Source of the DNA: Sulfurimonas sp.
GTDB lineage: Bacteria > Campylobacterota > Campylobacteria > Campylobacterales > Sulfurimonadaceae
DNA length: 32,830 bases
NCBI GenBank assembly: GCA_012963655.1
Contig: DTVI01000026.1
Location: 1-32,830, forward strand
Reading direction: 5' to 3'
Positions within the stretch are counted from its first letter, which is position 1, and every line of letters begins with the position of its first letter. Positions 4,507-23,139 of this stretch are shown one piece after another. The position numbers were made by a program, and so were the translations under genes. A model generated the notes under the pieces. That model was given only the letters and a program-made list of their open reading frames with translations. It was not told the origin of the DNA and made no database searches.

Positions 4507-4733
4507 AATATATCTTTATAGTTTTTTCTAAGCTAGCATTTTACTAGTAAAACGATAGCTTTAATTTTTAGAATTATAGCTTATTCACCTTAGATGGCAG
4601 GCTAAGACAAAATTGTCATAATTTTGGCTTGTTGATGTGTAAAAACGCAAATTTGTAAATTAGTTTTTTCCCTTCCTCTTTAACCGACTCCTTTACACAC
4701 CAACGAAGCGAACCCATTCCCTTTAACCGTTCT

Positions 4734-5249
4734 ATGGTAAAGTTTCATATGAGCGAATTAAAATATATTAAACATTATCATCCTGATACCCAAGCCCAAG
4801 TACATGCACTTATTAAAAACGACAAACTGTCTGAACATATATTAAGCAAGTACCCTTATAGTCATAATATTAGAACAGACAAGGCTTTGTTTTCGTATAT
4901 TATGGATTATAAAAATGAACATATGAAAAAGTCTGATCCCCTTTCTAAAGCCTTATATGATGGAAAGGTACAAACCTTTAATGCCTTAGGTACACATAGG
5001 TTTATTTCACGTGTGCAAGGTGGAAAACTAAAGGCAAAAAATGAAATTAGAGTAGCCCCTATCTTTAAGTCTATGCCTGAAGAGTTTTTGCGAATGATAG
5101 TAGTACATGAGCTTGCGCATTTCAAAGAAAAAGAACATAATAAGGCTTTTTATAAACTTTGTGAATATATGGAACCTTCGTATCATCAACTAGAATTCGA
5201 CCTTAGACTGTACCTTACTCAGATAGATTTAGCAGGTAAACTTTATTAA
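4734..5249 (+). CDS. YgjP/DUF45-like (M48-type) metal-dependent hydrolase
   Basis: The HELAH zinc motif occurs in the context VVHELAHFKEKEHNKAFYKLCEYMEP, which is typical of the DUF45/SprT-like family. The start could instead be ATG 4752 (MSELKYIK). Confidence 0.65.
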   Translation: MVKFHMSELKYIKHYHPDTQAQVHALIKNDKLSEHILSKYPYSHNIRTDKALFSYIMDYKNEHMKKSDPLSKALYDGKVQTFNALGTHRFISRVQGGKLKAKNEIRVAPIFKSMPEEFLRMIVVHELAHFKEKEHNKAFYKLCEYMEPSYHQLEFDLRLYLTQIDLAGKLY

Positions 5250-5370
5250 AGGATATATTATTTTATTCTAGACAACTCGTGTTATAAATAAGTCAATAAC
5301 GATTTTTTACATTAGGATGTTACTATTTATTATATATGTATTAGTAGGATATTTAATCTAGGAATCGACT

Positions 5371-5667
5371 ATGAACAATAGTGATAAATTAGCCTTTCTA
5401 TCCTTCCTATACCTAATGCCCTTAGTATGGCTAAGCATTATTCTTTCAAGTAGTTTTTTATCATATTTATATGTCCAAGATGCATTAAGGCTAAGTGTTA
5501 AAGAAGATATCACGCAACATATCTCAGAGCGATTTTTACATGCTAATGAACATTTAAATAATACCCTAAAGCTAGAGATAGAAGAATCAGATCTTATAAG
5601 TATACAAGATGTGTTTACATCTAAGGATGACCCAAATGTGATTTTTGGATATTCAAAAACAAGCTGA
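5371..5667 (+). CDS. hypothetical small membrane-anchored protein
   Basis: 98-aa ORF with one N-terminal hydrophobic helix (LAFLSFLYLMPLVWLSIILSS). No recognisable domain. It may be a remnant of a larger sensor gene. Confidence 0.35.
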   Translation: MNNSDKLAFLSFLYLMPLVWLSIILSSSFLSYLYVQDALRLSVKEDITQHISERFLHANEHLNNTLKLEIEESDLISIQDVFTSKDDPNVIFGYSKTS

Positions 5668-5773
5668 ATTTATTTTTTGGGTAAATAAAGAGACTTTTTA
5701 CGTATTAGCATACAAAAAGAGATGGAAGAACATGTGGGCTTAATGTTAAATGTCATCTTCTATTATTTGTTTA

Positions 5774-6154
5774 CTACTTAGTGTTTAAGATAGCAAGATG
5801 CGAACTACTTGTGCAAATAAGAACATCATCACAAAAGACTTCTACATTAACAAAGCCCATCGTTTTACCTAGTTTGATCAGCTTCCCCACAGCCTTTAAA
5901 TTTTTTCCCTTTCCCGGGCGAAGATAGTTTAAAGTTAATTCTTGGGTCATAGCTGTTTGACCTAGCTTAAGATGAGGTTCAAGTACAAACCAACCTGTAT
6001 TATCTGCAAGTGTAGAGATAACACCACCATGAATATATCCTAAGTGCTGCAAATGTTCTTTCTTTATCTGTATAGACAAGACAGCACCATCCTCATCACT
6101 TACTTCAACAACACATCCGATATAGTCCAAAAAGTTGAAAGATTCTTTACTCAT
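5774..6154 (-). CDS. PaaI/4HBT-type hotdog-fold thioesterase
   Basis: The YIHGGVISTLADNTG motif and the 126-aa size are typical of PaaI-family thioesterases. Confidence 0.75.
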   Translation of the reverse strand: MSKESFNFLDYIGCVVEVSDEDGAVLSIQIKKEHLQHLGYIHGGVISTLADNTGWFVLEPHLKLGQTAMTQELTLNYLRPGKGKNLKAVGKLIKLGKTMGFVNVEVFCDDVLICTSSSHLAILNTK

Positions 6155-6315
6155 ATAATTATTATAGCCTAAGCTAAGCTCAATTCAAAGTAACAAATAA
6201 AAAAGAATTTACTAAAAAGCCATCAACTTTTAGGGACGATTAATGCAAATGCTTCTATAATCGCGTCATTATTTTAAAAAGGTGGGCATGGCCCACTTTG
6301 ACAAGGGACAGGTAA

Positions 6316-7020
6316 ATGGAAGGTCGTTTATTTACATTTTTTGGTAGTCTAGGTGAAATGTTTGGTTATGTTGGACATGACAATCATACGGTTATTTTTT
6401 TAACACATATGCTGTTAAGTGCATTTCTTGTACTTGTTATTGCTAAGGTTGCAACAGCAAGTTTACGTTTAGTTCCAACAGGTACACAAAATGTTATGGA
6501 AGCTTACCTTGGTGGTGTATTATACATGGGTACAGATGTAATGGGAAGAGAAGAAGCACGTAGATATCTTCCTCTTGTAGCTACTATTGGTTTATTCGTT
6601 GTTGTAGCTAACTTAATTGGTGTTGTTCCCGGTTTTGAAGCACCAACATCAAGCCTTAACATGACTTTAGCTCTTGCTCTTGTTGTTTTCTTTTACTACA
6701 ACTTCGAAGGTATTCGTCGTCAAGGTGTGATTAAATACTTCAAGCACTTCTTAGGACCTGTTTGGTGGTTATACTGGTTAATGTTCCCTATTGAGATTGT
6801 TTCTCATATATCAAGAATTATTTCTTTATCTTTCCGTTTATTTGGAAATGTTAAGGGTGATGATATGTTCTTGATGGTTCTTTTAATGCTGACACCTTGG
6901 ATTTTCCCAATGGTTCCTTTTGCATTATTAACATTTATGGCACTTCTTCAAGGTTTCATCTTTATGATGCTTACATACGTATACCTTGGTGGCGCTATAG
7001 TTGTTGCAGACGATCACTAA
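6316..7020 (+). CDS. atpB: F0F1 ATP synthase subunit a
   Basis: A polytopic membrane protein carrying the conserved LSFRLFGNV stretch (essential Arg) and a C-terminal LLQGFIFMMLTYVYL, characteristic of subunit a. Confidence 0.9.
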   Translation: MEGRLFTFFGSLGEMFGYVGHDNHTVIFLTHMLLSAFLVLVIAKVATASLRLVPTGTQNVMEAYLGGVLYMGTDVMGREEARRYLPLVATIGLFVVVANLIGVVPGFEAPTSSLNMTLALALVVFFYYNFEGIRRQGVIKYFKHFLGPVWWLYWLMFPIEIVSHISRIISLSFRLFGNVKGDDMFLMVLLMLTPWIFPMVPFALLTFMALLQGFIFMMLTYVYLGGAIVVADDH

Positions 7021-15197: not shown

Positions 15198-15965
15198 TTA
15201 CCGTTATATTGTTGTAATTACTCTGCTTGAGATGAAATTTATCTTTTTGGATTTTCTCGTGGAGCATGTACGGCAAGGGCCTGATGTGGACTTATCAATA
15301 ATTGTGGGATACTTAAAGGGGAGTACGCCAAGCTAATTTAAATAGGCTTTGAATATTATGAAAAGTTTTCACTTCCTTGGGCTCCAAGTGGACAAAAGTT
15401 TATTGAGTTTAGACAAAAGTATTGTCATATTGATAAAGAAGTAAGGTTTGTTGGGGTTTGGGATACGGTGGGGGCTATGGGAATTCCTATTTCTTTTTTA
15501 GTTTTTTTTGAAGACAAGGATAAGTTTTATGATAAGAAACTTGGAAAAAATGTCCTTATGGCTAGACGTGCCTTAGCTATAGGTGAATACAGAAGTGATT
15601 TTGAACCAACCTTGTGGGAACAAAGAAAGAATATGGACCTAAAGTAAATGTGGTTTTGTGGGGCGCATAGTGATGTGGGTGGTTCTTATAAACCTTCAAA
15701 AGATGGCTCTTTAGCCTCAGATTATCCTTTGCAGTGGATGATGAAAGAGGCTTTGTTAATAGGTCTTGAAACGGAAGCTCACTTACACACTAACTTAAAT
15801 TTAAACCCTTTAAGTCCTATTCATAATTCTAGACGAAGTTTTTACCGCGAGATACAAGCAGAAGGAAGGGGCTTACATCTTCATCCTTGGGTTAAAAAAA
15901 GATGGGACGCAGATGAAAGATACCGACCGGATAACCTTCAAGTTCATATTAATAAATATGGATAG
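15198..15965 (+). pseudogene. DUF2235 (Tle1-type) alpha/beta-hydrolase/lipase remnant with four in-frame stops
   Basis: A single frame reads LPLYCCNYSA*DEIYLFGFSRGACTARA*CGLINNCGILKGEYAKLI*IGFEYYEKF...VRFVGVWDTVGAMG...ARRALAIGEYRSDFEPTLW...DLK*MWFCGAHSDVGGSY...LQWMMKEA.... The family hallmarks GFSRGA (nucleophile Ser), WDTVGA (Asp) and HSDVGG (His) are all present. Stops lie at 15228-15230 (TGA), 15282-15284 (TGA), 15339-15341 (TAA) and 15645-15647 (TAA). About 80-100 N-terminal residues are missing. Only the last piece (15648-15965) appears in the ORF track. Confidence 0.8.
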
Positions 15966-16039
15966 TAAAATATTTTCGCTGTATTTACCTTATATTTAGA
16001 GCAGTTAGATAAAATAAGAAAAAACATAAAAGATTTGCC

Positions 16040-17239
16040 TTGATAGCTGATATTAACCGACTTCTTTCTGTCTTACACAGTGATAGAAAGCTTTTTGAAT
16101 CTCTTTTTGAAAAACGCAACCGTTTGGTGGGTGTTCACGAGGTTTCTTCTCTTATAGGAGATGAAAAACTTGAATACCTTTTAAACGTTGAACTCTTAAG
16201 TCAAACCGATGAATCTGTTGAACTTGATGAAAGAGTTCTGAGCTTTTTTGAAGAGTTTTTAGAAACCAATGAAGATGTTGAGATAGGCGATGTGGATGAG
16301 CTGCTTATCAACTTAAAGTACAACATCGAGCTGTATCAAAATGAAAAAGACAATGTCCATTCACGGGAGCGCTACCTAGGAAAAATCAAACGTATTCTTA
16401 AAAAAGTACCAAATATGATTTTAAAAAATCTTTCCCTTTTACAACTGCATATCGGACTAACCTATAAAACCCAAAGCTCCCATAAAAATAAGGTCTTAGA
16501 ACTCGAACATTATAAACTAAAGCTTGATAAACTCATCAACATCGAACACAAGGTACAAAAAGCCCTTAGTCTAGAAGAAGGCTTTTTTAACATGGTGTCA
16601 TCTCATGATACGGTCTTACTTTCCCTTCGATTAAAGGTGCGTCTTAAAGAACTCCGTGTTTCACTCATTGAACTTCAAAAACAAGTGATTGAGTACATCA
16701 ACAAAACCTTGCATCAACAGCATTTTTTCGAGCATATTATTAAGCTAAAAGAGATGAAGTCAGCCCTTGAAATAAAAGAAAAAACAAATATCTTAGAACT
16801 ATTACACATGGAAACGACGCCGCTGTTTATGTCTAAGCCCCAACGCATTTCGACACTTCTTGACACGGAGGAGGTGTATGAGTTTGGCTTTAGTGAGATG
16901 GCGTCTAAGATAAGGCATGTCATCCCAACCACTAAGGTACTCGTATCTAAGGCAGAAGTACTTGAAGATAGTTTTTTTGAGGCCGAAGAAGAAGCCACGT
17001 TTATGATAGACACGGACGCCTTGCATTTAGAGTTTTTAGGTTCGCAAACAGACTTGTTTTCTTTTATAGATACTAAAGACTTTGAAATAGAACAAAACTT
17101 AGAAGCAAAGATAACCTTGTATTGCCAACTCGCACTGATGTACGAAAACGAATACGACTTTGATGAGCACAAACGAATGAAGGTAGACCCTTATGAATAT
17201 TTATCCATTACACCCAAGAAAAATAGGACTTTAATATGA
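16040..17239 (+). CDS. jetA: JetA/MksF-like (kleisin-position) subunit of a Wadjet-like system
   Basis: This is the first gene of the four-gene operon. The protein is 399 aa, strongly helical and acidic. The assignment rests on position, size and coupling (its TGA overlaps the next ATG at 17236-17239), not on a motif I can name. The start is TTG 16040, the first start codon after the in-frame stop at 16010-16012. Confidence 0.55.
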   Translation: MIADINRLLSVLHSDRKLFESLFEKRNRLVGVHEVSSLIGDEKLEYLLNVELLSQTDESVELDERVLSFFEEFLETNEDVEIGDVDELLINLKYNIELYQNEKDNVHSRERYLGKIKRILKKVPNMILKNLSLLQLHIGLTYKTQSSHKNKVLELEHYKLKLDKLINIEHKVQKALSLEEGFFNMVSSHDTVLLSLRLKVRLKELRVSLIELQKQVIEYINKTLHQQHFFEHIIKLKEMKSALEIKEKTNILELLHMETTPLFMSKPQRISTLLDTEEVYEFGFSEMASKIRHVIPTTKVLVSKAEVLEDSFFEAEEEATFMIDTDALHLEFLGSQTDLFSFIDTKDFEIEQNLEAKITLYCQLALMYENEYDFDEHKRMKVDPYEYLSITPKKNRTLI

Positions 17240-17796
17240 ACCTTCCCAAACAATCCAAAGAAATTTTTGAAATCCTATCACGGGGTAACTTCTTATGTGA
17301 GAACAGTCCGGTACGACTAGAGCGTGACTTATACCAAGCCTGCGAAAGAGAGTTTGGTGGGCATTATGACTTTTTTGAACATCTTGGTTTTTATCTTATT
17401 CGTGAAGATGGGTACTTTTACTTCTCAAAAGAACTCTCGGCTTCTGCAAAAGAAGATAAGTTACATATGATTTTAGAATACATTGACTTAGTGGAGTTGA
17501 TGTTACAGTTTTCTGCGAGTTTTGGTGTGGGCTTTAGAACCACAGTTGGAGAACTCTCCGACGCAGTGGGGTCAAACTCGGTGTTAAAAAACTCCCTTGA
17601 TAGACTTAAAAATATATCTAAACCTCAAACCTTGCATGCCCAATGTGCTAAGGTCTTTGAAAAATTTAAAAAGGGTGGCTTTATGGCCTTAGAAGATGAA
17701 CATGAAGAACGCTACATTGTCTTGTCCTCGTATCATTACATCGAAACCTTTTTAAACGCGATACAAGTAAGCTCAACACAAGAGGAAGCAGTTTAA
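17236..17796 (+). CDS. jetB: JetB/MksE-like subunit of a Wadjet-like system
   Basis: The 186-aa second gene has the size and position of the MukE/MksE-like partner. Its stop overlaps the jetC ATG (TAATG at 17794-17798). The functional call comes from synteny. Confidence 0.55.
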   Translation: MNLPKQSKEIFEILSRGNFLCENSPVRLERDLYQACEREFGGHYDFFEHLGFYLIREDGYFYFSKELSASAKEDKLHMILEYIDLVELMLQFSASFGVGFRTTVGELSDAVGSNSVLKNSLDRLKNISKPQTLHAQCAKVFEKFKKGGFMALEDEHEERYIVLSSYHYIETFLNAIQVSSTQEEAV

Positions 17797-20700
17797 TGAA
17801 CCAGTTAAAAGAAGTCACCTTTATAAACTCAGCGACCCTTCCTTTTGCGCAGATAGATGTAGGGGCGAATACCTTGTTTTCAGGGGGAAATGGCGCGGGT
17901 AAAACGACCATTCTTCGTTCTATCTTGTATTTTTATGGAGCAGGTCGGTCTGAGAGTCTTGGGATTAGTAGAAAGAAGAAGCGTTTTGATGAATACTATT
18001 TTGCGTCTATTAATTCTTATCTTGTGTATAGGTTTCAAAATCAAGACAGTGATGTCTTAGCCATTGTTTATAAGGCAGGGGGGCTTAGAGTTAAGTACCG
18101 TTTTGCCATTGAGCGAAACAAAGAAGAGATGAAAGAGCTGTTTTTTGAAGGTAACTCTGCCTTAGAACCGAAAGACTTATGGACGCGGTTACTTGAAAAA
18201 GAGTATGAACTTTCCCCTGTAATGAACTCGCCTAAAGAGTATAAGTCTGTTTTGTATGGGCAAGATCAAAAGCTGTCGCAGTTTTCATTTTTTAGAGCCA
18301 ACACTGAGTATGAACAAATCTCTAAAACCCTTTCGAATGTTTTTATTAATTCAAAATTAGACTCAGGCTCCATTAAAAAGTCTTTGGTGTCTAGTATCTC
18401 AGGGTTTGAGCCTATTGACTTAAACCATATGAGACGAAATATTGATGACTTTAGAGTGAAGTATGATGATATCAGCTCTTTTTCTAAAAATGCGGCGGCT
18501 ATTAATGAAGCGGTGGCAAGTTTAGGACTGTATGAAGAACAAACCAAAGATCTTCATACCTTAGCCCAGCGTTTAGGCTCTAACACTAAAACGGGTGAAG
18601 AAGAACTCAATGTCTTAAAAGAAAAGACCCTAACGCTTAGCAGTGAGCTCAGTGCCTTAGACAAACATAGAACAAGTGAAGAAGAGGTGTATCAAAAGGA
18701 ACACGATAGCGCCTTAAAAGAGCAGGGTGTGTTAGAAGAAGCCATAAGTGAGTCTAAACACAAGCAAGCAGAATATACGGCCCTAAAGATTGACGAGAAG
18801 CTTGTTCTTTGGGATACAAAGCCTTTTTTAGAGGAAACACTTGTGACCTTAAAGTCTCAACTTCATAAGCTAATAGACTCACAAAGTTCATTATCTGAAA
18901 CCTTTGATGCATTACGTGAAAAAGAGATGAAGAGTTTTCATGCAAAACAGCAAACACTTCATCAAGATATTATAAAGATACAACAAGACTATAACGAAAC
19001 TAATGCCTTGTATCTAAACGAAAAAGATGAGAAGCTTACCCACCATAGAATGCAGTCAGAACAGAAGGTACAAGAACTTTCTCAAAAACTGTTAGTAGCG
19101 AAAGAAGACGCTTTTTCAGCACTGTCTCATGAAAAAATAACACAATATAAGAGCTTTGATAAAGAAAAGATTGACAAGGCTAAGAATGAGAACCATAACT
19201 CAATACGTGCCTTTGACACTGAACAAGCCAATCTTCAACTTCTGCAATCGCAGGTACAAAAAGTAGCCGAACAAATTTTCTCAGCCGAACAAGGTAAGGA
19301 CTATAAACTCCAAAACCTAAGGCTTAAACAAGATAAAGAGGTAGGGGGCTTAAAAGAAAGTATAGAAGAACTTATAAAGAAAAAAGATTTAAACTCTGCG
19401 AGTGTTCTTGGATACATGAGAGAAAATAACTTTGAAAACACAGCAGTTCTTGCCGCCTTACTTAAAGATGAGGTCTTGTTCTCACAAACCTTAAGTCCAA
19501 CACTCTCTCAAAGCAATAACAGTCTTTTAGGGCTTAATTTGGACTGTTCTTCTTTAGATATTCAAGGGTACGATCAAAGTGCTATTGCTATCTCCTTACA
19601 AGCAAGCCAAGAACGTTTAAAGCGTATGAATGAAGTGGCCTTAGTTGAGAATGAAGCCCTTGAAAATGAGGTGCGAAACAGCATTAATGCTCTTAGACGT
19701 GAACAAGGTCGTGTTAATACTCTTATAGATGAATCTTTAAGAGTACTGCCCAAGTTAGAAACCCAAAGTCTTACGAACGCAGAACACTTACAAAGCCTGC
19801 AAAACCTGGCCTCTAAGGTAAAAGATGAAGAACTAAGTCTTGCGCGAGAACAAAGAGAAGCTAAAGATACTCATTATAAAACTATGCAAGTTGAAAATGA
19901 GTATTTACGCAAAGACCTTCAAGACCAAGCCAATTTTATTATTAATGAAAGTCTGAAAAAGCAAAAAAAGCTTGATGATGAGAAGACCCTTGTACTAGAG
20001 CATAAGAATGAAGAGATTGTTAAAATAGCAAGTGAGCGTGATAAGCAGTTTGATAGTATTAAACAAGAAGAAGATGAAACCTTGATACGCGGTGGGGTGG
20101 ATGAGAGTTTATTGAAAAAATATCAGGACAATATTGAGAATAAAGAAAATGAACTGACTAAGATAGAGGCCTTCTCAAAACTTATTGCTGTTTACAATGT
20201 AGATAAAGAACGCATGTTTGATACCTTAGAGGATAAGATAAAAGAACTTGAAACACTTTCTGCGAAGTTAAAAGAAAAAGAAAAAGAACAACAACTCTCT
20301 ATGGAACTTTTTGATAAGAATAAGACAAGTATAGTTCAAGAAAGAGATGGCTTTGTACGTCAAGTATCGAGTATTCAAAAAGATTTGAAAGAATACCTTT
20401 CATTTAAAGACTCAACACTTTACATACAACTGAGTTCGTATATAGAAAACTCTGAATTAGAAGCAAGCCAAGATAATGTTTCAGACATCATCAATAAACT
20501 AAGAGACTTAGGGTTTGAGCATAGCAGTTCAAAAGACAAGTTAAGAAAGAAACTAAATAAAGCATTTTCTTCTATGAGTACCAACAATATCTTTAGTTTA
20601 TATGCACCGGGTTCTGATACGGACAGAGCTATTTTAGCCTCAGCTCATGGCTTAAAAACCTTTGTTCTTGAAAATAAGATACAAACCTATAAAGAAGAAG

Positions 20701-21425
20701 TGGCCAAAGAGTTCACTATGACCCTAAGACACCTTAGTTCTGAAATAGGCGAACTCTTAAAGGCCGAAGGTGATATCTCTAAAACAGTGTCACGTATCAA
20801 TAAAACCTTGCAAGACTTACAAGGTATTAAGGTGATTCGTGGGATTGAACTTCGCTATAAAGAGTCTGATAATCTCTTGCTCAATGTCTTAAAGGCAATA
20901 GGTCATTTAGTCGAAGATAACCCTTATGGAAATGAGGTCAATCTTTTTTCAAGTAAAATTAATGAGAGTTTTAATGAAAAAGCGCTGAAACACTTAGAAG
21001 AGTTATCCCTTCACTTAGGCGAAGACAAGTCAGACTTGTTAACCCTTGATGAAAGTTTTGTCCTTGAATTTAGAGCCATTGAAAATGGAAATGATACAGG
21101 CTTTGTACCTTCTCTTGATGGCATCGGCTCAAACGGAACAGATGTCATGGTAAAAGCGATGGTAAATATCGCTATGTTATCATTGGCGCGAAAACAGTCA
21201 TCTAAAAAAGATGCTTCGGTGTATTTCCATTGTATCTTAGATGAGGTGGGGATTTTATCACCTGCGTACCTTAAAGAACTCATTGCTTACGCTAATAACA
21301 AGCAAATACGCTTTATAAACGGCGCACCTGACGAAAAGCTTGTTTCAACCTATAAACGACTATACATGCTTTCTACAGATGAAAAGCACAGAACGGTTGT
21401 ACGAAAGTTAGTCTCGCAGTCATGA
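17796..21425 (+). CDS. jetC: JetC/MksB-like SMC-family ATPase
   Basis: The Walker A FSGGNGAGKTT (nt 17883-17909, K36) closely resembles the MukB SGGNGAGKST. About 900 aa of heptad-rich coiled coil is interrupted by a short Gly/Pro-containing non-helical segment (about nt 19400-19600, hinge-like). The C-terminal head carries a signature-like GSNGTD (21126-21143) and Walker B CILDEVG (D1149/E1150, nt 21234-21245). Confidence 0.8.
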   Translation: MNQLKEVTFINSATLPFAQIDVGANTLFSGGNGAGKTTILRSILYFYGAGRSESLGISRKKKRFDEYYFASINSYLVYRFQNQDSDVLAIVYKAGGLRVKYRFAIERNKEEMKELFFEGNSALEPKDLWTRLLEKEYELSPVMNSPKEYKSVLYGQDQKLSQFSFFRANTEYEQISKTLSNVFINSKLDSGSIKKSLVSSISGFEPIDLNHMRRNIDDFRVKYDDISSFSKNAAAINEAVASLGLYEEQTKDLHTLAQRLGSNTKTGEEELNVLKEKTLTLSSELSALDKHRTSEEEVYQKEHDSALKEQGVLEEAISESKHKQAEYTALKIDEKLVLWDTKPFLEETLVTLKSQLHKLIDSQSSLSETFDALREKEMKSFHAKQQTLHQDIIKIQQDYNETNALYLNEKDEKLTHHRMQSEQKVQELSQKLLVAKEDAFSALSHEKITQYKSFDKEKIDKAKNENHNSIRAFDTEQANLQLLQSQVQKVAEQIFSAEQGKDYKLQNLRLKQDKEVGGLKESIEELIKKKDLNSASVLGYMRENNFENTAVLAALLKDEVLFSQTLSPTLSQSNNSLLGLNLDCSSLDIQGYDQSAIAISLQASQERLKRMNEVALVENEALENEVRNSINALRREQGRVNTLIDESLRVLPKLETQSLTNAEHLQSLQNLASKVKDEELSLAREQREAKDTHYKTMQVENEYLRKDLQDQANFIINESLKKQKKLDDEKTLVLEHKNEEIVKIASERDKQFDSIKQEEDETLIRGGVDESLLKKYQDNIENKENELTKIEAFSKLIAVYNVDKERMFDTLEDKIKELETLSAKLKEKEKEQQLSMELFDKNKTSIVQERDGFVRQVSSIQKDLKEYLSFKDSTLYIQLSSYIENSELEASQDNVSDIINKLRDLGFEHSSSKDKLRKKLNKAFSSMSTNNIFSLYAPGSDTDRAILASAHGLKTFVLENKIQTYKEEVAKEFTMTLRHLSSEIGELLKAEGDISKTVSRINKTLQDLQGIKVIRGIELRYKESDNLLLNVLKAIGHLVEDNPYGNEVNLFSSKINESFNEKALKHLEELSLHLGEDKSDLLTLDESFVLEFRAIENGNDTGFVPSLDGIGSNGTDVMVKAMVNIAMLSLARKQSSKKDASVYFHCILDEVGILSPAYLKELIAYANNKQIRFINGAPDEKLVSTYKRLYMLSTDEKHRTVVRKLVSQS

Positions 21426-22273
21426 AACTGTCTTTGTCCTTAGCTAAGAAGTTACTTCGTTTAAGTGAAGATAAGGTGATGAACAACAGTGCTTTTAAAA
21501 ATGCATCAAAATTGCAAGAACTTGTAGAGTTTGGTATTGTAGATTTAAAAATTACTGGGCAAAATACAAAGATTCTTTTTATATCGCAAACTAAACTTGA
21601 CACGTACTTAAAACACCAATTTGGTATTCATGATTTACAAGGTTATGTGCAAGAAGGTTTAAATTCAAACCGAACACGAGCCAGTATCTCTCAGCAAAGC
21701 AATGACAGCAAAAGCTTTAAAACACAGGTCCAAGCAGGTTTGTATCTCGCAAGTTATGAGAAGATAGATATTGTAGTTAATGATGAAGAAATGAGTGTAC
21801 TAACGCCAAACATGATAAGTTTATTTATTCATAAAGATGCAAAGATTAAACTTCCTAAAGACATCACTCTAGTAGGTGTTGAAAATTTTGAAAACTTACA
21901 AAATATTCAAAAGCAAAAATATCTTTTTGAAGCAGGGCAAAAAAAGCTGTTTGTGTACCGAAATAAATATTCAAGAGAATTATTGTCACAAAGCTTTAAT
22001 GAATATCTCCATTTTGGGGATTTTGACTTAGCAGGAATTAACATCTTTTTAAATGAAGTCGTACCAAGACTCCCCCATGAAAGACACAAGTTTTTTATCC
22101 CTACTAATATCGAAGACTTATTAGAAAAGGGAAGTGCAGGTGATTATTTCTTGCATCATAAAAAATACCCTAACTTGAAAACAAAAATGAAATATTTACA
22201 AGATCTAATTGACCTTATCCATAAAAAGAAACGTTCATTGCATCAAGAGTTCTTAATTATGGGCACTTTGTAA
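21422..22273 (+). CDS. jetD: JetD/MksG-like Toprim nuclease subunit (compact)
   Basis: The Toprim acidic residues are present: a conserved Glu in LVGVENFENL (E154, nt 21881-21883) and a DxD in HFGDFDLAGINIF (D200/D202, nt 22019-22027). The N-terminal roughly 140 aa look like a small winged-helix-type domain. The ATG overlaps the jetC TGA (ATGA at 21422-21425). Confidence 0.75.
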   Translation: MKLSLSLAKKLLRLSEDKVMNNSAFKNASKLQELVEFGIVDLKITGQNTKILFISQTKLDTYLKHQFGIHDLQGYVQEGLNSNRTRASISQQSNDSKSFKTQVQAGLYLASYEKIDIVVNDEEMSVLTPNMISLFIHKDAKIKLPKDITLVGVENFENLQNIQKQKYLFEAGQKKLFVYRNKYSRELLSQSFNEYLHFGDFDLAGINIFLNEVVPRLPHERHKFFIPTNIEDLLEKGSAGDYFLHHKKYPNLKTKMKYLQDLIDLIHKKKRSLHQEFLIMGTL

Positions 22274-23139
22274 TATATATCTTCTTCCTCAATGAACTGC
22301 AAAGTAACTTGTTCTATGGGGAATTTTCTATCATATTTTAATGTAATGGCTTCATGAATCTTTTCTTTTAATTCTTCAAGGCTTGTAGCATGTACTTCTA
22401 TAGTGTCACTCTTTGTTTTAGCCTTGTAATAGCTTCTTTTGTAATCATGCTTTACCAAAAAGATTTGTCTTTTATACACAGGCCAGTGAGCATGTTGATA
22501 AATAAAGTACCAGTGTAAACCAGCGCCAAATATTACAAAAACATGAAAAAAGTCATGTGCTTCAACAATGCCTTCTATAAGAACAGGCCAACGTAAAAAC
22601 TCTAAGACTGCGCCAAAGGTATAGGCAAGACCCCCTAATACAAGGTACTTGGCTTCTTTAAAACCATACTGTCTTACAACGAAATAGCCTGTGAGTAAGC
22701 CTATCCAACCTAATCCTAAGTAAAAAATTAGACTCAGCCATTCAGGCATAGTGGAAAAAAAGACTGTGGTGAAAATCACACTAGGAATAGTTATACTCCA
22801 TACTAATAGTAAAACACCCCAACGTTTCACCCCTCTAAACATAAGGGTGTGAATAGGGGTAAATGTACCCGCAATTAGTATCCAAATAGCCGCGTGATCT
22901 AAGACTTGTAAGACATCTCTTGAGCTACTGTGATAAGGCAGTAAATGAAAGGTACCACTCATACTAAAAAGAAAAATAAGAGAAATTGTGTATAAGATGA
23001 CTGAGCTTACTCGCATTTTAGAACCAAGTGCTTTAGATACTAAAAAGTATCCTGCAATTAAAAATCCAAGGGCAGCTACAAGATGTAAGCAAGTACTTAC
23101 AGGGTCATAAAGCCCTAAGAAGGTGAAGTCTTCTTGCAT
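22243..23139 (-). CDS. hemolysin III/PAQR-family 7TM protein with a roughly 75-aa C-terminal soluble extension
   Basis: The family motifs are SGTFHLLPY, LDHAAIWILIAGTFTP, and HDFFHVFVIFGAGLHW. After the seventh TM comes a charged tail (KRQIFLVKHDYKRSYYKAKTKSD...EEEDIYYKVPIIKNS) that I do not expect in the roughly 215-aa canonical proteins. Confidence 0.75.
   Translation of the reverse strand: MQEDFTFLGLYDPVSTCLHLVAALGFLIAGYFLVSKALGSKMRVSSVILYTISLIFLFSMSGTFHLLPYHSSSRDVLQVLDHAAIWILIAGTFTPIHTLMFRGVKRWGVLLLVWSITIPSVIFTTVFFSTMPEWLSLIFYLGLGWIGLLTGYFVVRQYGFKEAKYLVLGGLAYTFGAVLEFLRWPVLIEGIVEAHDFFHVFVIFGAGLHWYFIYQHAHWPVYKRQIFLVKHDYKRSYYKAKTKSDTIEVHATSLEELKEKIHEAITLKYDRKFPIEQVTLQFIEEEDIYYKVPIIKNS

Follow-up and report, generated by a model that had tools for sequence, protein, structure and literature searches.

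The closest described systems to the locus reported here are the Wadjet anti-plasmid systems, for which mechanism and subunit roles have been published (PMC10586767; bioRxiv 10.1101/2025.03.10.642339). Type I Wadjet (JetABCD, also termed MksBEFG or EptABCD) is represented in E. coli GF4-3, P. aeruginosa PA14, C. glutamicum and M. smegmatis and combines four roles, namely a MukF-like kleisin (F, JetA), a MukE-like KITE protein (E, JetB), a DUF3584-class SMC protein (B, JetC) and a nuclease (G, JetD), with the gene order F-E-B-G. The type I nuclease measures ~380–400 aa, joins a CAP/winged-helix domain that lacks the CAP tyrosine to a Toprim domain, and binds an N-terminal motif of JetB through an elongated arm-CAP (DUF3322). 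MukBEF and the P. aeruginosa-type MksBEF share the SMC-kleisin-KITE core; these nuclease-free members of the Wadjet group organise chromosomes (PMC7617805, PMC10586767). Besides, a recent census (Burmann et al. 2025) lists BEFG operons of gamma- and betaproteobacteria, among them those of Psychrobacter arcticus, Ferribacterium limneticum and the Acinetobacter indicus plasmid pB18-1.

In the operon described here the four roles and the gene order are those of type I Wadjet. Its product is probably an SMC-nuclease complex of the Wadjet group (JetABCD/MksBEFG-type), from a compact lineage of its own that is only distantly related to the anti-plasmid systems and has not yet been classified. The operon occupies positions 16040–22273 of the window (the whole stretch of DNA analysed, 32.8 kb in length) and consists of four intact, co-directional open reading frames, listed here together with a candidate promoter:

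15943..15971, + strand: candidate sigma-70-like promoter, TTCATA-17-TAAAAT, from a consensus scan, ~70 bp upstream of the first gene
16040–17239, + strand: ORF 1, 399 aa, TTG start; predicted kleisin subunit (JetA/MksF/MukF-like)
17236–17796, + strand: ORF 2, 186 aa; KITE subunit (MksE/JetB/MukE-like), Pfam PF21980
17796–21425, + strand: ORF 3, 1209 aa; SMC-like ATPase (JetC/MksB class), Pfam DUF3584
21422–22273, + strand: ORF 4, 283 aa; predicted effector nuclease (JetD/MksG-like), Pfam DUF7281

The four lengths and the overlap at every junction (ATGA at 17236–17239, TAATG at 17794–17798 and ATGA at 21422–21425) reproduce those of the original prediction exactly, with the SMC gene and the intact nuclease gene overlapping by 4 nt. 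The promoter candidate is statistically unsupported, the region containing fewer sigma-70-like sites than shuffled sequence. The operon is under strong purifying selection: compared with the syntenic orthologues in a related locus (L001), genes 1–3 show dN/dS values of 0.05–0.10, so the open reading frames are real genes rather than chance occurrences, while synonymous sites of the fourth gene are saturated in the same comparison. The TTG start of the first gene is supported by the length of its homologues (~399 aa, covering 98–100% of the query) and by residue conservation that begins at L8.

Originally assigned a MukE/JetB-like role by position and size alone, the 186-aa protein matches Pfam MksE (PF21980) over its full length (residues 5–172 against profile positions 1–162 of 163; 2.2e-25; 90.3 bits at a cut-off of 27). 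PADLOC JetB1 weakly matched five of 24 members of its family (best 7.6e-6). The 1209-aa protein likewise aligns end to end with Pfam DUF3584 (7.4e-26; residues 25–1192 against 19–1189 of 1191), the family that PADLOC lists for JetC. It has the length and layout of the MukB/MksB/JetC class (>890 aa), with an N-terminal head carrying Walker A, two long coiled coils flanking a short hinge-like segment at ~545–600, and a C-terminal head carrying the signature and Walker B. As had been read from the sequence, the coiled coil is interrupted by a short break; the profile regions on either side of it (343–545 and ~600–913) matched coiled-coil proteins only, SMC arms among them. The two nucleotide-binding motifs noted at the outset, Walker A (FSGGNGAGKTT with G30, G35, K36 and T38) and Walker B (HCILDE with D1149/E1150), are invariant in 24 orthologues. 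The same applies to the signature, rightly called atypical, which reads GSNGT at residues 1111–1115 and is conserved as GSxGT (G1111, S1112, G1114, T1115). PADLOC JetC1 matched 17 of 24 family members (best 1.5e-8).

The 399-aa protein matched nothing in Pfam, NCBIfam or PADLOC, and its assignment comes from structure prediction. Its AlphaFold2 model, of medium confidence (pLDDT 76), displays the domain order of MukF-like kleisins, with an N-terminal winged helix (~5–62), a long helical bundle (~84–241), a disordered linker (~257–320) and a C-terminal winged helix (~325–392). Eight of its nine best Foldseek matches in the PDB are MukF structures (9gm7_C at 1.9e-3, 7nz2, 7nyw, 3euh, 3rpu and 9gm9 among them) and the ninth is E. 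coli JetA (8as8_E, 5.7e-3), at E-values spanning 2e-3 to 8e-2. The predicted fold thus suggests a kleisin architecture and agrees with the role that the original prediction had inferred from position and size. Across 498 representative clusters, the members of this family are all ~395–410 aa long, and the gene always comes first in the conserved operon.

The 283-aa protein belongs to Pfam DUF7281 (1.1e-11) and has two domains, a CAP-like winged helix at the N terminus and a Toprim domain after it. In its AlphaFold2 model (pLDDT 92) the former is a compact winged helix of ~100 aa. The Toprim Glu...DxD residues first noticed in the sequence, E154 and D200/D202 within the motifs VGVEN and HFGDFD, proved invariant in 35 homologues. 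PADLOC JetD models matched 24 of these 35 (best 8e-7) and Pfam JetD_C matched eight; together with the C-terminal Toprim domain and its acidic metal ligands, this places the protein with the JetD/MksG nucleases, whose Toprim domain is of the JetD_C/DUF2220/DUF2399 kind. A census-listed MksG carries DUF7281 along with DUF2399 and JetD_C. By fold, the best matches over both domains are Spo11 (8urq_A, 4e-5) and Topo VI-A (2zbk_A and 9o0g_A, ~8e-4), which share the metal-binding E...DxD, and no solved JetD chain was found among the top 50 Foldseek matches. However, identity to Topo VI-A/Spo11 is 12–15%, the operon encodes an SMC protein and no B-subunit partner, and the catalytic tyrosine of the 5Y-CAP is absent: across residues 1–105 of the 35-sequence alignment, no tyrosine is invariant or nearly so. 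We therefore rejected an identity as Topo VI-A/Spo11. In the same alignment R86 is nearly invariant, and the residue four positions further is aliphatic.

These assignments bear out the proposed Wadjet/MksBEFG-class operon, in that a kleisin fold, an MksE protein, a full-length DUF3584 protein and a flanking Toprim nuclease with JetD matches are encoded co-directionally. They do not make it a type I, II or III system, as the four proteins are not all recognised by JetA-D models. In PADLOC, the window proteins matched JetC1 (6.5e-4, first 40 aa only) and JetD1 (1.1e-3, profile positions 295–386 of 387 only); the JetA and JetB models matched none of them, and JetA matched none of the kleisin family. 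All matches to types I–III were sub-threshold, with type I models matching most often. NCBIfam matched none of the four window proteins, and HMM profiles of the four families did not reach any solved JetA/B/C/D or MukB/E/F chain.

Size sets the operon apart from type I as well, as was suspected for JetA and JetD. Its kleisin is ~90 aa shorter (399 versus 480–498 aa) and similar to type I at the level of predicted fold rather than sequence, and its nuclease is ~100 aa shorter (283 versus ~387–400 aa), whereas its SMC protein is ~100 aa longer (1209 versus ~1110 aa) and carries the GSxGT signature. The nuclease lacks the arm-CAP, with no DUF3322 match, and its recruitment and activation must therefore use an interface different from that of type I JetD. 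Shortness alone is not new, because the census contains short MksG proteins (~280–315 aa) in other lineages. Indeed, the sizes derived from census coordinates for Ferribacterium (~1209, 210, 405 and 284 aa for B, E, F and G) nearly equal those found here, and the Acinetobacter indicus operon combines the same Pfam families, DUF3584 and DUF7281. Yet the census operons are ordered B-E-F-G, not F-E-B-G, the similarity of the SMC proteins is confined to an N-terminal stretch of 32% identity, and the Acinetobacter KITE protein has no Pfam MksE match. Pairwise and profile comparisons were barely significant, with E-values of 0.037 for the nuclease (hhalign) and 0.039 for the KITE protein, and those of the kleisins gave nothing. 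The family appears to be missing from the 2025 census, in keeping with the unclassified variant that was originally suspected.

At least 442 species genomes contain relatives, which are patchily distributed across phyla and common in Bacteroidota and Campylobacterota; plasmid records with a relative number only four, and none was found on viral contigs. The operon is conserved as a unit, colinear as F-E-B-G in 47 of the 54 loci with enough flank and with mostly overlapping junctions, and subunit sizes are very uniform (medians of 399, 190, 1225 and 287 aa for F, E, B and G). Bacteroidota operons often adjoin restriction-modification, toxin-antitoxin or integrase genes: a type III restriction-modification system lies beside one of them, HipA, YhcG and AbiE-like genes occur nearby, integrases together with another conflict system adjoin the operon, and one copy resides on a plasmid with a relaxase and HigB.

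By analogy with Wadjet, plasmids or other circular DNA are the most likely targets of restriction by the complex. Modelled on types I and II, we infer a mechanism in which two 1209-aa SMC proteins would dimerise via their short hinge, while the 399-aa kleisin would connect the two ATPase heads, binding one at its neck and the other at its cap. The kleisin linker would carry two copies of the 186-aa KITE protein as a dimer, and the kleisin N-terminal domains would probably pair two motors. Once loaded onto DNA, the complex would extrude loops at the expense of ATP, relying on K36 and E1150. If the DNA is a small closed circle, loop growth would come to completion or stall and thereby license a dimer of the 283-aa protein to cut, presumably by Mg2+-dependent hydrolysis at E154/D200/D202 of the winged-helix/Toprim dimer. 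Plasmids and other small circular invaders would be destroyed and the chromosome spared.

In the window's own Sulfurimonadaceae-like clade, on the other hand, the complex might be a resident condensin of the MksBEF/MukBEF kind that organises the chromosome, with the Toprim protein processing DNA as a housekeeping enzyme, for instance by separating catenated or entangled molecules. Here, synteny is preserved and the operon has descended vertically: it follows gatB-trk-gpsA at the same chromosomal place in the window, L001, L002 and L007, and it evolves about as slowly as the adjacent housekeeping genes (identity to L001/L002 of 86%/73% for F and 93%/85% for E, compared with 92%/79% for GatB). 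Every neighbour in the 32.8-kb window is a housekeeping gene, as originally described, and neither defence nor mobility neighbours were found in this clade. All of this fits defence and a resident function on the chromosome equally well. Such a function would also be in line with the chromosome-organising role of MukBEF and P. aeruginosa MksBEF, with the name 'condensin complex protein MksE' given by NCBI to Bacteroidales KITE orthologues, and with an F-E-B version without the nuclease gene in Parachryseolinea. Nevertheless, we regard this explanation as unlikely. Nearly all loci retain a nuclease gene with invariant catalytic residues, a feature foreign to MukBEF/MksBEF, and the nuclease lacks the conserved tyrosine of a reversible topoisomerase-type reaction. 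Moreover, it is the fastest-evolving subunit (74%/49% identity to L001/L002), as an arms-race component would be, and the patchy distribution and the Bacteroidota contexts likewise speak for defence.

A defence system of another kind, in which an SMC-like ABC ATPase and a Toprim protein (PARIS/AriAB-, OLD/Gabija-, Lamassu- or DndD/PbeC-like) sense phage infection instead of DNA shape, and in which both small proteins are unrelated adaptors, is considerably less probable still. ATPase-Toprim pairs are common among defence systems, and in PADLOC the PbeC (1.7e-5) and DndD (5.5e-5) models weakly matched the SMC protein or an orthologue of it, while AriA matched five (best 2.5e-8) and LmuB four of the 24 orthologues. 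The possibility raised at the outset that the 1209-aa protein might fall into such another SMC-like clade did not materialise, however: these matches are scattered or confined to the P-loop, spanning residues ~27–108 in the window protein, while DUF3584 aligns from end to end. Neither an MksE KITE protein nor a MukF/JetA-like kleisin belongs to such systems, and across the 35 nuclease homologues only JetD models matched recurrently, not those of OLD, Gabija (GajA) or AriB. A Lamassu, DndD-PbeC or PARIS ATPase was accordingly rejected, with no full-length match and no partner families detected.

The Tle1-like gene adjoining the operon is a pseudogene. That the operon itself was acquired long ago and is now decaying or no longer functional, as this neighbour and the B gene broken into two open reading frames in the relatives L007 and L011 might suggest, is hardly credible given four intact genes, conservation of all catalytic motifs and dN/dS values of 0.05–0.10.

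Our data support the view that the four genes, termed F, E, B and G, constitute a compact, widespread lineage of the Wadjet group, i.e. a new variant within a known group. The sequence contains them exactly as originally predicted, with the same sizes and with every junction overlapping:

16040-17239, + strand: ORF F, 399 aa, TTG start
17236-17796, + strand: ORF E, 186 aa
17796-21425, + strand: ORF B, 1209 aa
21422-22273, + strand: ORF G, 283 aa

The overlaps comprise ATGA (17236-17239), TAATG (17794-17798) and ATGA (21422-21425). The TTG start of F is credible, as homologues are ~399 aa long, align to 98-100% of the query and show near-invariant positions from L8 on. The G+C content of the operon genes (0.34-0.38) was unremarkable against the remainder of the window, and a promoter and terminator scan of the operon region returned no enrichment.

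E and B were assignable through domain profiles. E gave a full-length match to Pfam MksE (PF21980; 2.2e-25), and B aligned end to end with Pfam DUF3584 (7.4e-26; residues 25-1192 on positions 19-1189 of the 1191-position profile), the domain that PADLOC lists for JetC. Across 24 B orthologues, the Walker A residues G30, G35, K36 and T38 were invariant, as were D1149 and E1150 of Walker B. The same was true of the signature motif (G1111, S1112, G1114, T1115), which reads GSNGT in the window and GSEGT in the consensus; this unusual GSxGT bears out the atypical ABC signature remarked on in the original prediction. Residues 1171-1178, the putative H-loop/switch region, harbor a conserved INGxP without histidine (I1171 and P1178 invariant, N1175 near-invariant). 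Judged from these motifs, INGxP and GSxGT together suggest an unusual periphery of the ATPase active site across the whole B family. The family profile matched coiled-coil proteins only, SMC arms among them, at about residues 343-545 and about 600-913, and the short globular segment between these coiled coils (about 545-600) fits the expected arm-hinge-arm layout. Reading B as DndD, PbeC, LmuB or AriA was rejected, because such matches were confined to the P-loop of the window protein.

F matched nothing in Pfam, NCBIfam or PADLOC. In its AlphaFold2 model (29 homologues, pLDDT 76), winged helices at the N and C termini enclose a bundle of very long helices (about 84-241) followed by a disordered linker (257-320). 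MukF and JetA share this kleisin layout, and the nine best Foldseek matches in the PDB were MukF chains (9gm7_C at 1.9e-3, also 7nz2, 7nyw, 3euh, 3rpu and 9gm9) and one E. coli JetA (8as8_E, 5.7e-3), with low TM-scores, as expected of a flexible multidomain protein; together, model and matches lend moderate support to a kleisin assignment. A HMMER search with the F profile yielded 498 representatives of about 400 aa that form a closed family: the best 150 of the 498 were all family members, with no bridge to JetA or MukF.

G matched Pfam DUF7281 (1.1e-11), and eight of 35 family members additionally matched Pfam JetD_C (best 5.2e-6). Invariant in 35 homologues were VGVEN (E154), HFGDFD (D200, D202) and Q275-E276. 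The AlphaFold2 model (pLDDT 92) places a winged-helix domain before the Toprim domain, and its best PDB matches, spanning both domains, were Spo11 (8urq_A, 4e-5) and topoisomerase VI-A (2zbk_A and 9o0g_A, about 8e-4), the fold class in which MksG and JetD have been reported to fall (PMC10123090, PMC10586767). The winged-helix domain contained no conserved tyrosine in the 35 homologues, which makes a hydrolytic nuclease likelier than a topoisomerase; the latter assignment was rejected for want of a conserved CAP tyrosine. Unlike type I JetD, which carries the DUF3322 arm-CAP domain, G has no arm-CAP, so its docking interface would be non-canonical.

Both gene set and order equal those of Wadjet, which comprises the kleisin JetA, the KITE protein JetB, the SMC protein JetC and the Toprim protein JetD (PMC10586767), and the proposed Wadjet class is supported by MksE, DUF3584, the kleisin plan of F and the Toprim domain of G. 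By sequence, however, the relationship is distant: matches of the window proteins to PADLOC models were all sub-threshold (JetC1, 6.5e-4 over 40 residues; JetD1, 1.1e-3), with none to JetA or JetB. Across the family they were weak (JetC1 in 17 of 24, JetB1 in five of 24), and the F family had no JetA match. NCBIfam returned nothing for the operon proteins, and single-sequence and profile searches of the four families against PDB sequences retrieved SMC coiled-coil noise only and no solved Wadjet or MukBEF chain. In line with the predicted shortness of the JetA and JetD counterparts, F (399 aa) and G (283 aa) are shorter, whereas B is longer, than the type I proteins of Sulfurimonas sediminis (480, 213, 1109 and 387 aa for F, E, B and G) and C. 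glutamicum (495, 212, 1111 and 400 aa); E. coli JetA measures 498 aa.

A proteobacterial group in the Wadjet-group census of Burmann et al. 2025 (Data S1 of PMC7617805) has almost the same protein sizes, yet its genes are ordered B-E-F-G rather than F-E-B-G as in the window. In its member from Acinetobacter indicus pB18-1, MksB is a DUF3584 protein (1.8e-114) and MksG matches DUF7281, DUF2399 and JetD_C. Direct and profile comparisons with this operon were marginal; since hhalign of our family profiles against its single proteins was marginal at best, the idea that the present family is a mere gene-order permutation of the Acinetobacter lineage was rejected. Also in the census are Bacteroidota operons whose MksG proteins are short (279-316 aa), with smaller MksB (about 1057-1098 aa) and larger MksF (about 439-463 aa) (PMC7617805). 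The census contains the present family for none of about 20 genera that carry it; the names checked were Flammeovirga, Microscilla, Salinimicrobium, Gelidibacter, Roseivirga, Persicobacter, Parachryseolinea, Fulvivirga, Formosa, Psychroflexus, Lacinutrix, Winogradskyella, Dysgonomonas, Flavisolibacter, Prevotella, Sulfurospirillum and Cryomorpha. The entries present for Bacteroides, Parabacteroides, Sulfurimonas and Arcobacter differ in size. The census criterion of MksF ≥ 400 aa, against a family median of 399 aa, may account for this. Public records name the proteins 'hypothetical', 'ATP-binding protein' or 'DUF7281 domain-containing protein', and E 'condensin complex protein MksE'; nothing relevant on DUF7281, 'type IV Wadjet' or MksE in Bacteroidota emerged from a search of the literature. 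The suspicion of an unclassified variant is sustained: neither PADLOC v2 nor NCBIfam recognizes the lineage, nor does the single published census that was checked. Short MksG forms and both DUF families are already catalogued, however, and the lineage is not categorically new.

When one genome per species was scanned, at least 442 genomes encoded a relative of G, mostly Bacteroidota and Campylobacterota, with other bins scattered; viral contigs scanned with the G profile contained none. Local HMM searches covered 80 fetched loci, 54 with enough upstream sequence, of which 47 were colinear for F-E-B-G (median sizes 399, 190, 1225 and 287 aa), with overlapping E/B and B/G junctions in 43 and 36 of the 47, respectively. 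The exceptions were split genes (L007, L011, L044), an inverted F (L030), a permuted G-F-E-B order (L050, L057) and a locus with only B, in part, and G recovered (L022). Among the split cases, B occupies two ORFs in the Campylobacterota loci L007 (6368-10004) and L011 (6321-9974), which a frameshift, pseudogenization or misassembly could explain. L057, binned as a Methanomethylophilaceae archaeon, nearly matches the Bacteroidaceae locus L050 in layout and gene sizes, which suggests misbinning or a recent transfer; L067 likewise sits in an archaeal bin (Altiarchaeales). A separately fetched Parachryseolinea silvisoli locus (L003, 10001-15460) has F-E-B with no DUF7281 gene after the SMC gene, much as the Wadjet derivatives MksBEF and MukBEF lack a nuclease. 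When 448 flanking ORFs were clustered, no neighbor recurred in more than five loci, i.e. there was no conserved fifth gene. Besides, two divergent copies occur in one bin, the Arcobacter sp. NORP14 MAG (L009, L015), with nucleases 70% and 34% identical to that of the window. The index of the assembly collection lists an MksE variant of gut Bacteroidales (P0495, from L090) in 2818 blocks, pointing to a very common system in gut metagenomes.

By analogy, the operon most likely serves Wadjet-type restriction of small circular DNA, which would be subjected to loop extrusion and then Toprim cleavage, with assembly, extrusion, sensing and cleavage each proposed by homology. The chief alternative, for which genomic context provides some arguments, is that the complex plays a resident, condensin-like role in the clade of the window. 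As predicted, the window's neighbors are all housekeeping genes (including ABC-F, atpB, thiE, gatB, trk, gpsA, nadE, lpxK and argB) and there are no mobility genes within the window. The operon occupies one shared site in the window, L001, L002 and L007, and its identities between the window and L001/L002 (F 86/73%, E 93/85%, B 78/61%, G 74/49%) reflect a divergence about equal to that of neighbors (GatB 92/79%), which together indicate vertical inheritance in a Sulfurimonadaceae-like clade. Against such a role, the nuclease is universally retained, catalytically intact by motif and the fastest-evolving subunit in this clade, and other taxa show defense and mobile contexts. In gut Bacteroidales (L090, 2690-14074), a type III restriction-modification system lies immediately ahead of the operon, which also adjoins a large helicase gene. 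A Persicobacter plasmid carries a copy together with a relaxase and HigB, and in Parabacteroides (L088, 1-4562) another SMC_N conflict system (CTD4, MComp1 and a 1042-aa SMC_N protein) lies directly upstream and two integrase genes downstream. Other Bacteroidota neighbors include HipA and YhcG-like nuclease genes, Fic fragments and AbiE-like pairs, the latter assigned by reading cluster representatives' sequences alone. A YhcG/DUF1016-type nuclease gene precedes F directly in several unrelated Bacteroidota loci and, in Cryomorpha, lies between E and B:

L012/L086, 3532-4569: upstream of F
L025, 3109-4302: upstream of F
L085, 1773-2963: upstream of F
L089, 3112-4305: upstream of F
L080 (Cryomorpha), 4694-6316: between E and B

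This occasional neighbor may be an accessory or a hitch-hiker. Another kind of ABC-ATPase/Toprim defense system is poorly supported, the recurrent defense-library matches of the G family being to JetD models alone (24 of 35, best 7.9e-7; JetD3 in nine of 35). Also poorly supported is a decaying remnant, as dN/dS against the syntenic L001 orthologues (F 0.06, E 0.05, B 0.10; G synonymous sites saturated) marks the four ORFs as real genes under selection.

Wadjet is the paradigm of an SMC loop extruder that can measure DNA shape and trigger a nuclease. Mechanistic studies have been confined to types I and II, whose JetABC and JetD are not interchangeable, docking being type-specific (bioRxiv 10.1101/2025.03.10.642339). 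We consider it rather unlikely, yet worth spelling out, that the lineage forms a fourth, mechanistically distinct type, combining a minimal Topo VI-A/Spo11-like winged-helix/Toprim nuclease, devoid of the arm-CAP, with a long-armed SMC and docking unlike types I and II. If so, substrate or size rules or sensitivity to anti-defense factors might differ, and in Sulfurimonadaceae the system may be stably inherited core genome surveillance rather than a set of mobile defense-island genes. Uniform in size, with the smallest kleisin and among the smallest nucleases, the Wadjet lineage proposed here would be well suited to structural studies of nuclease licensing. Moreover, it would close a gap in defense annotation of Bacteroidota and Campylobacterota and may help account for poor plasmid uptake in some carriers, while the slowly evolving syntenic copy in the window's clade offers a useful case for the proposed traffic between defense SMCs and chromosomal condensins.

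As to the immediate flanks, the 3' end of G overlaps that of a convergent HlyIII-family gene (22243-23139, - strand) by 31 bp (22243-22273); in L001, two further genes missing in the window (encoding 222 aa and a 246-aa Zn_dep_PLPC/DUF4184 protein) separate the two. Directly upstream of the operon lies a degraded Tle1-like gene (DUF2235, T6SS phospholipase-type; 15216-15965, + strand), which is 67% identical to residues 82-335 of the intact 337-aa L001 orthologue, lacks the N-terminal 81 residues and is interrupted by in-frame stop codons after FGFSRGACTARA (about 15286) and at about 15645.
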